DNA of 64,000 nucleotides, from the NCBI RefSeq assembly GCF_050920415.1, contig NZ_CP169309.1. One strand, written 5' to 3'. Below are positions 8,685 through 9,049 of this stretch, one piece after another (position 1 is the stretch's first letter; the number at the start of each line of letters is the position of its first letter). The notes under the pieces were generated by a model. That model was not told the origin of the DNA, ran no database searches, and worked only from the letters and a program-made list of their open reading frames with translations. The DNA is from Escherichia coli (lineage in GTDB: Bacteria; Pseudomonadota; Gammaproteobacteria; Enterobacterales; Enterobacteriaceae). The position numbers and the translations under genes are program-made.

Positions 8685-9049
8685 ACCATAGACAACATGA
8701 ATATTAATGTTACTATCTGGTTGAGACTGTTGATAAAACGTAAAAAGGAATGCTCTGTTCCTGCAACTGAACAGGCGTGAAACGCTATCCAACAGGATGG
8801 ATACCGTTTTATCAGCCAGTTTTATAGATCACACTTATGAGTATGCGTGTTTCATTTACGGCCAGGAATGCTGATGATGACAACATTACTACCCGTTTTC
8901 ACTAAGCCTTCCCCATTGGCGCTCAATGCTCTGTGCGCTGGTCGTATTTGCCGTTTCCTTCTTATCCCGGATGGATGAATCCGCTGAACGTCGTTCGGTG
9001 GCAGTTGTAACACGCGTCTTTTGCTTACAGGGATTATGGCGGGTCGATT

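Follow-up and report, generated by a model that had tools for sequence, protein, structure and literature searches.

The short open reading frame (ORF) at positions 8874-8978 of the window (the whole stretch of DNA that was analysed, 64,000 nucleotides of Escherichia coli contig NZ_CP169309.1) is almost certainly yhiY, a small ORF already known to be translated, which belongs to the 5' leader of yhiI-rbbA-yhhJ. We infer that yhiY most likely acts mainly in cis, as the leader uORF of a Rho-dependent attenuator placed before yhiI-rbbA-yhhJ, and we favored a cis-acting leader uORF over a conserved peptide because the start region is conserved, the middle evolves neutrally and both length and frame of the uORF vary. 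The gene itself is already known: it was found in 2019, it is held in RefSeq, UniProt and Pfam, and a regulatory uORF role has already been proposed for it. The useful remainder of our analysis is a comparative pattern, i.e. a hyper-conserved start, a neutral middle, 3' nucleotides that are conserved independently of the reading frame and hairpins at the stop, and this pattern offers a concrete and testable design for deciding between YhiY as a cis leader and YhiY as a trans protein.

Identity, start codon and alleles of yhiY

Exploring the sequence in front of yhiI, we found in-frame ATG codons at 8868-8870, 8874 and 8877 and a TGA stop codon at 8976-8978. The ORF that begins at 8868 encodes MLMMTTLLPVFTKPSPLALNALCAGRICRFLLIPDG (36 aa), in exact agreement with the 36-aa ORF and the three ATGs given in the initial annotation, while the mechanical ORF reaches further upstream, to a GTG at 8847 (43 aa). 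The ORF does lie upstream of yhiI, as had been noted, whereas the gap of 72 nt reported between the two needs correction, as 71 intervening nt separate the TGA from the yhiI start codon (ATG, 9050). The length of the yhiY ORF alone is not above chance, as 46 ORFs of at least 20 aa overlap the 3 kb around it. Support for yhiY as a real gene comes from the published K-12 experiments together with the cross-genus conservation of the start region. The features of the ORF and its start are as follows.

8874-8978, + strand: yhiY coding sequence, 34-aa allele (MMTTLLPVFTKPSPLALNALCAGRICRFLLIPDG plus stop); RefSeq coding sequence in an identical strain, Pfam PF23514 and the K-12 ribosome-profiling start.
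8864-8867, + strand: Shine-Dalgarno (SD) sequence AGGA, 6 nt before the ATG at 8874; sequence and conserved upstream context.
8868-8873, + strand: ATG CTG, the extra codons of the 36-aa ORF; the SD abuts this ATG, and Weaver et al. report a start at the second AUG.
8976-8978, + strand: strain-specific premature stop codon TGA (AGA, Arg35, in K-12), with loss of the C-terminal RIR; alignment with K-12.

The ORF had been described as unannotated, but a RefSeq coding sequence named yhiY maps to 8874-8978 (34 aa) in the 100%-identical strain NZ_CP169399.1. The K-12 yhiY coding sequence starts at the same ATG and encodes 37 aa (MMTTLLPVFTKPSPLALNALRAGRICRFLLIPDGRIR), a sequence identical to UniProt YHIY_ECOLI. 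Comparison with the Pfam family PF23514 "YhiY" gave 89.7 bits (E = 9.3e-26; cut-off 27) for the 34-aa peptide of the window and 103.1 bits for the K-12 peptide; NCBIfam has no YhiY model. Megablast of positions 8685-9060 revealed matches in 5,412 of the 5,426 complete E. coli genomes, and among the matches listed for these 5,412 genomes a gene named yhiY lies beneath the match in almost all. The gene order yhiJ-yhiY-yhiI-rbbA-yhhJ, all on the same strand and with yhiY directly upstream of yhiI, is that of K-12 and of the identical strain.

Regarding the start codon, AGGA (8864-8867) abuts the ATG at 8868 with zero spacing, and it is positioned 6 nt ahead of the ATG at 8874, which is normal SD spacing. 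RefSeq, the K-12 coding sequence and ribosome profiling all use this second ATG, indicating that the start at 8868 proposed initially was two codons early and that the codons ATG CTG at 8868-8873 are probably not translated. The objection that the ORF has no strong SD falls because the start is the second ATG, for which AGGA is properly spaced.

Expression is documented in K-12. Using Onc112 and retapamulin in ribosome profiling, Weaver et al. (bioRxiv 10.1101/511675) identified yhiY as their ORF9 and assigned initiation to the second AUG. Of 38 candidates that they SPA-tagged on the chromosome, 36 were seen in western blots; the text does not explicitly name ORF9/YhiY among the 38. YhiY was also detected intact by top-down mass spectrometry, as well as by DIA and PRM, at an abundance of ~1000-3000 copies per cell (PMC12529367). 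The ribosome occupancy that the initial annotation had put forward as a check is thus present in K-12, and its proposal of a candidate leader peptide or small protein for yhiI-rbbA-yhhJ is borne out by K-12 translation, by mass spectrometry and by the inclusion of yhiY in the list of potential regulatory uORFs of Adams et al. In the papers searched, neither a start-codon mutant of yhiY nor a function of the peptide was described. YhiY is rich in proline, and its net charge is positive. No membrane-type segment was found in it by a simple hydropathy estimate, the top 19-aa Kyte-Doolittle mean being 0.99 for K-12 and 1.36 for the window, and by this estimate YhiY does not have the single hydrophobic transmembrane helix of small membrane regulators of the AcrZ/MgtS type.

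The window and K-12 share the yhiJ/yhiI locus, and promoter, SD and start region are identical in the two. The window differs from K-12 yhiY (ORF9 of Weaver et al. 2019) at codon 14 (CCG to CCA, synonymous), by R21C and by the change of AGA35 to TGA, leaving 33 of its 34 residues identical to residues 1-34 of K-12. R21C is a common polymorphism that is also found in the yhiJ-lacking strains Ecol_244 and U12A. The truncating allele is a minority allele: seven of the 5,426 complete genomes match the surrounding 53-55 nt exactly, and in a large protein collection 275 contigs carry the 34-aa sequence of the window and 195 carry another allele of 34 aa, compared with at least 1000 for each of the two main 37-aa alleles. 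The K-12 C-terminus that is lost by truncation, R-I-R-stop, is similar to R/K-X-R/K, a motif that causes stalling of ribosomes with a bound macrolide.

Transcription of the operon and Rho-dependent 3' ends in the K-12 leader

The genes of this part of the window are all on the + strand, starting with yhiJ (7062-8684), which is followed by the intergenic region and the operon. The relevant features are given below.

8689-8716, + strand: sigma-70 promoter TAGACA-16-TACTAT of the yhiY-yhiI-rbbA-yhhJ transcript; single promoter-like site in the scan and published hexamers.
8723, + strand: probable transcription start, 7 nt past the -10 box; deduced from the 5' end of a cloning primer.
8717-8830, + strand: lineage-specific, strongly structured 5'-UTR segment; alignment, inverted repeats and folding.
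8879-8935, + strand: C-rich, G-poor stretch within yhiY (C 0.33, G 0.16), a candidate rut site by its composition.
9050-10117, + strand: yhiI (HlyD-family periplasmic adaptor), first large gene of the operon; ORF, annotation and NCBIfam matches.
10114-12849, + strand: rbbA (fused ABC ATPase/permease), followed by yhhJ; ORF and annotation, with yhhJ seen in the identical strain.

The same promoter hexamers were reported as the constitutive RpoD promoter of yhiI-rbbA-yhhJ (Shimada et al., PMC3946193), and alignment shows that the promoter is kept as TAGACA-N17-TAGTAT in other genera. Transcription probably begins at 8723, the position of the 5' end of primer JW10219 (GAGACTGTTGATAAAACG...), with which Adams et al. 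cloned the 'yhiI 5' UTR + ORF'. The segment at 8717-8830 is a 114-nt insertion that is missing from E. albertii, from other genera and from E. coli without yhiJ; it carries the inverted repeats TGATAAAACG/CGTTTTATCA, is present as a single copy in 4282 of 5426 genomes and folds with a minimum free energy (MFE) of -38.2 kcal/mol (z = -4.67). The lineages with and without this insertion, like the natural 34-aa and 37-aa alleles, provide ready-made variants for the cis/trans question. Two published records were set aside as irrelevant: a riboswitch-prediction paper (PMC4448311), which mentions the operon only for a segment ~6.6 kb off, and the FlhDC SELEX site 3630156, which is located inside yhiI, outside the leader.

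Published K-12 data map a 3' end 43 nt ahead of the yhiI start, at the position corresponding to 9007 of the window, in a row labelled 'uORF' (Adams et al., PMC7815308; bioRxiv 10.1101/2020.07.18.207399). Coverage across this 3' end dropped from 762 to 101 without bicyclomycin and from 792 to 351 with the drug; its Rho score is 3.34, a significant Rho termination region, and its intrinsic-terminator score of 2.14 is below the cut-off of 3.0 (PMC7815308). Our scan of the leader in the window likewise found no intrinsic-terminator-like site. A second K-12 3' end, at -65, coincides with the base that opens the K-12 yhiY stop codon (window 8985), and a yhiI reporter fusion was more than 2-fold up in rhoR66S (PMC7815308). 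The same study named yhiY-yhiI as candidate uORF-regulated, with 3' ends less than 200 nt downstream (PMC7815308), and elsewhere overproduction of CspD was found to increase expression of the yhiY-associated operon (PMC9765468).

The stretch at 8879-8935 is the only C-rich, G-poor stretch of the leader, and all the sequence downstream of it is G-rich. In the middle of the uORF, which is not conserved, C still exceeds G in Escherichia, Citrobacter, Pseudocitrobacter and Salmonella (C/G 1.1-2.4), and the bias is weaker in the Klebsiella group.

Conservation of the leader within Escherichia and across genera

Of the distinct codon changes that we found in yhiY within Escherichia, 7 are synonymous and 10 non-synonymous, giving a crude pN/pS of ~0.5. 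The non-synonymous changes are confined to codons 14-27 and 35, codons 1-13 carry no change of any type, and the alleles in the population are distributed likewise; residues 1-11 are almost invariant within Escherichia and residues 28-34 hardly vary within E. coli. Apart from the minority truncating allele, the sole frame disruption seen in E. coli was in strain E423, the lowest-ranked of 40 matches sampled evenly across the 5412 ranked genomes, in which an IS1 stands in place of the yhiY 5' end and rbbA has become a pseudogene. Hence, frame-disrupting variation among close relatives, which according to the initial annotation would speak against the ORF, is very rare within E. coli, but the frame does change between genera. 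These between-genus changes count against a conserved peptide and not against translation.

To compare genera, loci with YhiI relatives were taken from a collection of one genome per species and their upstream regions were aligned, with 18 species for the leader and 17 species for the RNAalifold consensus and the pairing of hairpin 2. The segments are listed below, and the identities are those of Citrobacter, Pseudocitrobacter and Salmonella to the window.

8836-8896, + strand: block A, ultra-conserved, with the SD, the three ATGs and yhiY codons 1-8; identity 93-98%.
8897-8953: middle of yhiY, neutral; identity 54-67%.
8954-8977, + strand: hairpin 1, TTCC-T-TCT / loop TATCCC / GGA-T-GGAA, over the last 8 codons; predicted by the RNAalifold consensus of 17 species.
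8981-9001, + strand: hairpin 2, CCGCTGAAC-GTC-GTTCGGTGG, which holds the K-12 stop codon (8985-8987); predicted by consensus pairing and present in the MFE fold.
3' box plus hairpins: identity 75-88%.
9007-9017, + strand: block C (GTAACACGCGT), complementary to 8843-8853 of block A, with 9007 corresponding to the K-12 3' end at -43; duplex energy and Term-seq row.
Spacer to yhiI: identity 75-81%.
yhiI codon positions 1+2: identity 91-93%.
yhiI codon position 3: identity 48-56%.

In the Enterobacteriaceae, the yhiY start region is therefore conserved as strongly as the non-synonymous positions of yhiI. Escherichia, Citrobacter, Pseudocitrobacter, Salmonella diarizonae and the Klebsiella/Raoultella/Enterobacter group all have a uORF beginning with ATGATGAC (MMTT...). 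The sequence directly before it is GGCCAGGAA(T/C)GCTG in Escherichia, Citrobacter, Pseudocitrobacter and Salmonella, with small changes of the SD context in the Klebsiella group, and the SD core GGA is invariant in 18 of the 18 aligned species. Kluyvera carries ACG in place of the first ATG, so that the second ATG alone survives and the ORF reads MTT-stop, 3 codons. The uORF is 34-37 codons long in Escherichia, 45-46 in Citrobacter, Pseudocitrobacter and Salmonella, and 78-98 in the Klebsiella group, where it overlaps yhiI out of frame.

Downstream of the start, the middle of yhiY evolves neutrally and with indels beyond Escherichia. The peptides of Citrobacter and Salmonella score 15.3 and 10.9 bits against the Pfam YhiY family, below the cut-off, and only residues 1-13 match. 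The stretch encoding FLLIPDG in E. coli is conserved at the nucleotide level, and it is read in another frame in the C. freundii complex (7 genomes, a 1-nt difference upstream), where the uORF reads ...SFSSRMESPAE-stop with its TAG stop codon in the loop of hairpin 2. A conserved arrest or sensor motif at the C-terminus of the uORF was not found across the genera, the nucleotides alone being conserved. Where the 'coding' sequence is best conserved, its synonymous sites do not vary either. The uORF stops at or beside hairpin 2 in Escherichia, Citrobacter, Pseudocitrobacter and Salmonella, with the exception of Escherichia sp. E1V33, in which it stops 11 nt past the hairpin; the frameshift of this strain was discounted, since it involves a C5 homopolymer in a 'consensus' assembly and could stem from an error of sequencing. 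The stop at hairpin 2 is not universal, as the uORF of the Klebsiella group enters yhiI and that of Kluyvera ends after its third codon. These comparisons indicate that initiation at the yhiY site is conserved and that no specific peptide is maintained beyond Escherichia.

This pattern bears on the possibility that YhiY acts in trans, e.g. by modulating the YhiI-RbbA-YhhJ exporter or another partner, its position in front of yhiI serving for co-expression. The detection of intact YhiY by top-down mass spectrometry at the copy numbers given above is in line with a function in trans, as are an ORF that is intact in nearly all E. coli genomes, the near invariance of residues 1-11 and 28-34, a peptide that is fairly well kept within Escherichia (the crude pN/pS) and its classification by Pfam as a protein family. 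However, beyond Escherichia only residues 1-9 persist, with lengths between 3 and 98 codons and, in the C. freundii complex, a different frame for the 3' two-thirds. Moreover, the invariant stretches overlap the RNA hairpins and, being invariant at synonymous sites too, may reflect constraint on the RNA; truncated 34-aa alleles and many substitutions circulate, and the peptide has no transmembrane-like segment (0.99-1.36 in the 19-aa Kyte-Doolittle estimate). We consider a role in trans unlikely, albeit the best of the alternatives to a cis-acting leader uORF.

Predicted structure of the leader RNA and a proposed model for attenuation

A search of Rfam 15 with window positions 8600-9150 on both strands yielded 0 matches at E <= 1. 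In hairpin 1, the AGA-to-TGA change of the window turns one U-A pair into U-U. In hairpin 2, 96.7% of cells are paired across the 17 species versus 9-45% in slid controls; few compensatory changes were seen and covariation was not significant, as 135 of 500 shuffles reached the observed paired percentage. Positions 8843-8853 of block A (ATGCGTGTTTC) are complementary to block C in every genus examined, with duplex energies of -14 to -18 kcal/mol. In the resulting A-C helix 90.9% of cells are paired, including one U-A to C-G double change; covariation was again not significant (122 of 500 shuffles), in an alignment that was anchored on the proposed register and is biased towards pairing. Further sequences retrieved by way of block A would not contribute two-sided covariation, since this block is invariant. 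Folding of single sequences gave the A-C helix with a probability of 0.76-1.0 in five of ten genera, and the E. coli fold was without the helix. We put forward hairpin 2 and the A-C helix, as predicted by these models, as hypotheses.

A model in which translation of the uORF opens the ribosome binding site (RBS) of yhiI was dropped as the main model, given that sequestration of the RBS was inconsistent in single-sequence folds, its unpaired probability being 0.10-0.16 in E. coli and 0.33-0.63 elsewhere.

In the Rho-dependent attenuation that we favor, transcription would start near 8723 from the TAGACA-16-TACTAT promoter, and ribosomes would load at AGGA(8864)-N6-ATG(8874), translate through the C-rich, G-poor stretch at 8879-8935 and terminate at or just before hairpin 2 (8981-9001). 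Translation of yhiY would mask the Rho-loading region and melt both 3' hairpins, allowing RNA polymerase to continue into yhiI. When translation is poor or uncoupled, Rho would load and terminate transcription in the leader and in early yhiI, and the resulting 3' ends would be shortened as far as hairpin 2. In K-12, the 3' end at -43 falls 6 nt past this hairpin, and trimming of Rho-terminated transcripts back to a stable stem would give such an end. Both the identity of the rut site and the link between yhiY translation and yhiI expression are what we infer in this model.

The classical Rho-dependent leader-peptide attenuator is of the tnaC-tnaA type, in which tnaC needs a conserved arrest peptide and free tryptophan. 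As in tnaC-tnaA, the short leader ORF yhiY ends near the Rho entry and termination region, and the position of the ribosome could decide between termination and read-through. Unlike tnaC, yhiY has no conserved arrest motif across the genera compared. Its place inside the leader is given by position (promoter and transcription start at 8689-8723, yhiI at 9050), and its translation by the K-12 literature. Action in the manner of a uORF attenuator is plausible, and membership in the arrest-peptide class is not supported.

yhiY also resembles mdtU (ydgV) of the mdtJI leader, which likewise is translated as a uORF (~34 codons), precedes an export operon within a long 5' UTR, has Rho-dependent 3' ends downstream, was detected in the same screens and was named alongside yhiY-yhiI (Adams et al., PMC7815308). 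For mdtU, the effect of a start-codon mutant and spermidine as the inducer were demonstrated, and its C-terminal peptide is conserved in 17 genera (PMC7815308), whereas the C-terminal peptide of yhiY differs between genera.

A more tentative extension is that yhiY forms the translated core of an undescribed, conserved and structured leader RNA, which we regard as possible but rather doubtful. Here, a hairpin of block A would present the SD, pairing of 8843-8853 with 9007-9017 would act as a clamp and the twin hairpins would be located at the uORF stop. Selection in the Enterobacteriaceae would then maintain the RNA and the act of translation rather than the peptide, and Rho termination would be tuned ahead of an ABC-type exporter, possibly in answer to translation stress, a context in which the likeness of the K-12 C-terminus to the R/K-X-R/K motif may be relevant.

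If the nucleic acid is what is selected, translation could even be incidental, the conserved entity being an RNA or DNA element such as the block A hairpin, the A-C clamp, the twin 3' hairpins or the operator of a regulator. Conservation of block A extends well upstream of the SD as well as into the ORF, the 3' box is conserved whatever the reading frame, and Kluyvera keeps blocks A and C though its ORF is reduced to 3 codons; the complementarity of the two blocks in every genus examined and the helix found in half of the single-sequence folds (0.76-1.0 in 5 of 10) agree with such an element as well. Nevertheless, SD-N6-ATGATG is conserved in Escherichia, Citrobacter, Pseudocitrobacter and Salmonella with minor changes of SD context in the Klebsiella group, and ribosomes use this start site in K-12. 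The lack of an Rfam match in the region searched, covariation that is not significant and the fact that no regulator is known to bind the leader also speak against an element of this kind, and we consider it slightly less probable than a role of the peptide in trans. That yhiY is a chance ORF, unexpressed in this strain and without a biological role, is very improbable: ORFs of such length are common by chance, but its promoter, SD and start region are those of K-12, where translation and protein are documented, and the start region is conserved across genera.

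Conservation of the yhiY leader and a 114-nt insert in its 5' UTR

Exploring the divergence from K-12 along this mosaic region, we found 11-32 differences per 200 nt in yhiJ (7062-8661) and 3-13 per 200 nt in yhiI/rbbA (9050-11650), the third-position identity of yhiI being 87%, as against 4-5 differences per 200 nt in the leader (8662-9061). The leader stays much closer to the K-12 sequence than the flanking genes do, and it is the most conserved part of the region. Two leader elements are considered here:

8717-8830, 114-nt single-copy segment separating the -10 box from the conserved leader
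8843-8853 with 9007-9017, long-range complementary pair, 5' of the yhiY SD and in the spacer preceding yhiI

The 114-nt segment was found in 4282 of 5426 E. coli genomes, namely those with yhiJ upstream, and was absent from E. coli strains without yhiJ, from E. albertii and from every other genus examined. With this segment the 5' UTR of yhiY is about 150 nt long instead of about 45 nt. The segment carries long inverted repeats (TGATAAAACG/CGTTTTATCA) and its predicted fold has an energy of -38.2 kcal/mol (z = -4.67). In addition, AGGAATGCT, which forms the SD and ATG context at 8864-8872, has a second copy inside the segment (8746-8754).

Upstream of yhiY, two tandem genes of the DUF4049 (YhiJ/YhiL) family occupy positions ~5200-8684, as read via two comparison loci (L001 and L002). 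The distal gene is intact in the window strain, while a frameshift is annotated in yhiL, its K-12 copy. Both genes are missing from about 1130 E. coli genomes, so that yhiM adjoins the yhiY promoter there. In E. coli E423 (locus L083, from NZ_CM173464.1; 1792-2598 of the locus), the promoter and first codons of yhiY are replaced by IS1A, yhiJ/yhiL are missing and rbbA has an internal stop, which together suggest that the whole operon is decaying in this strain.

Complementarity across the uORF

Pairing between 8843-8853 and 9007-9017 is kept across all Enterobacteriaceae genera examined, and the changes are exclusively pair-preserving. Covariation for this helix was not significant and the helix was not predicted in the E. 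coli folds. The complementarity is compatible with an RNA clamp that would enclose the entire uORF.

RNA 3' ends and the end of the uORF

Two published K-12 RNA 3' ends upstream of yhiI (Adams et al.) correspond to window positions 8985 and 9007, and one of the two falls on the first nucleotide of the stop codon that ends yhiY in K-12. With the yhiY stop TGA of the window at 8976, a ribosome would stop 9 nt before the equivalent of that 3' end.

In Klebsiella, Raoultella and Enterobacter (loci L018-L024), the MMTT... uORF, in the region from about -170 to +131 around the yhiI start, is open for 78-98 codons; it crosses that start in a different frame and ends 67-131 nt within the gene. Judged by its geometry, this overlap would allow translational coupling or interference, not termination at a leader hairpin.
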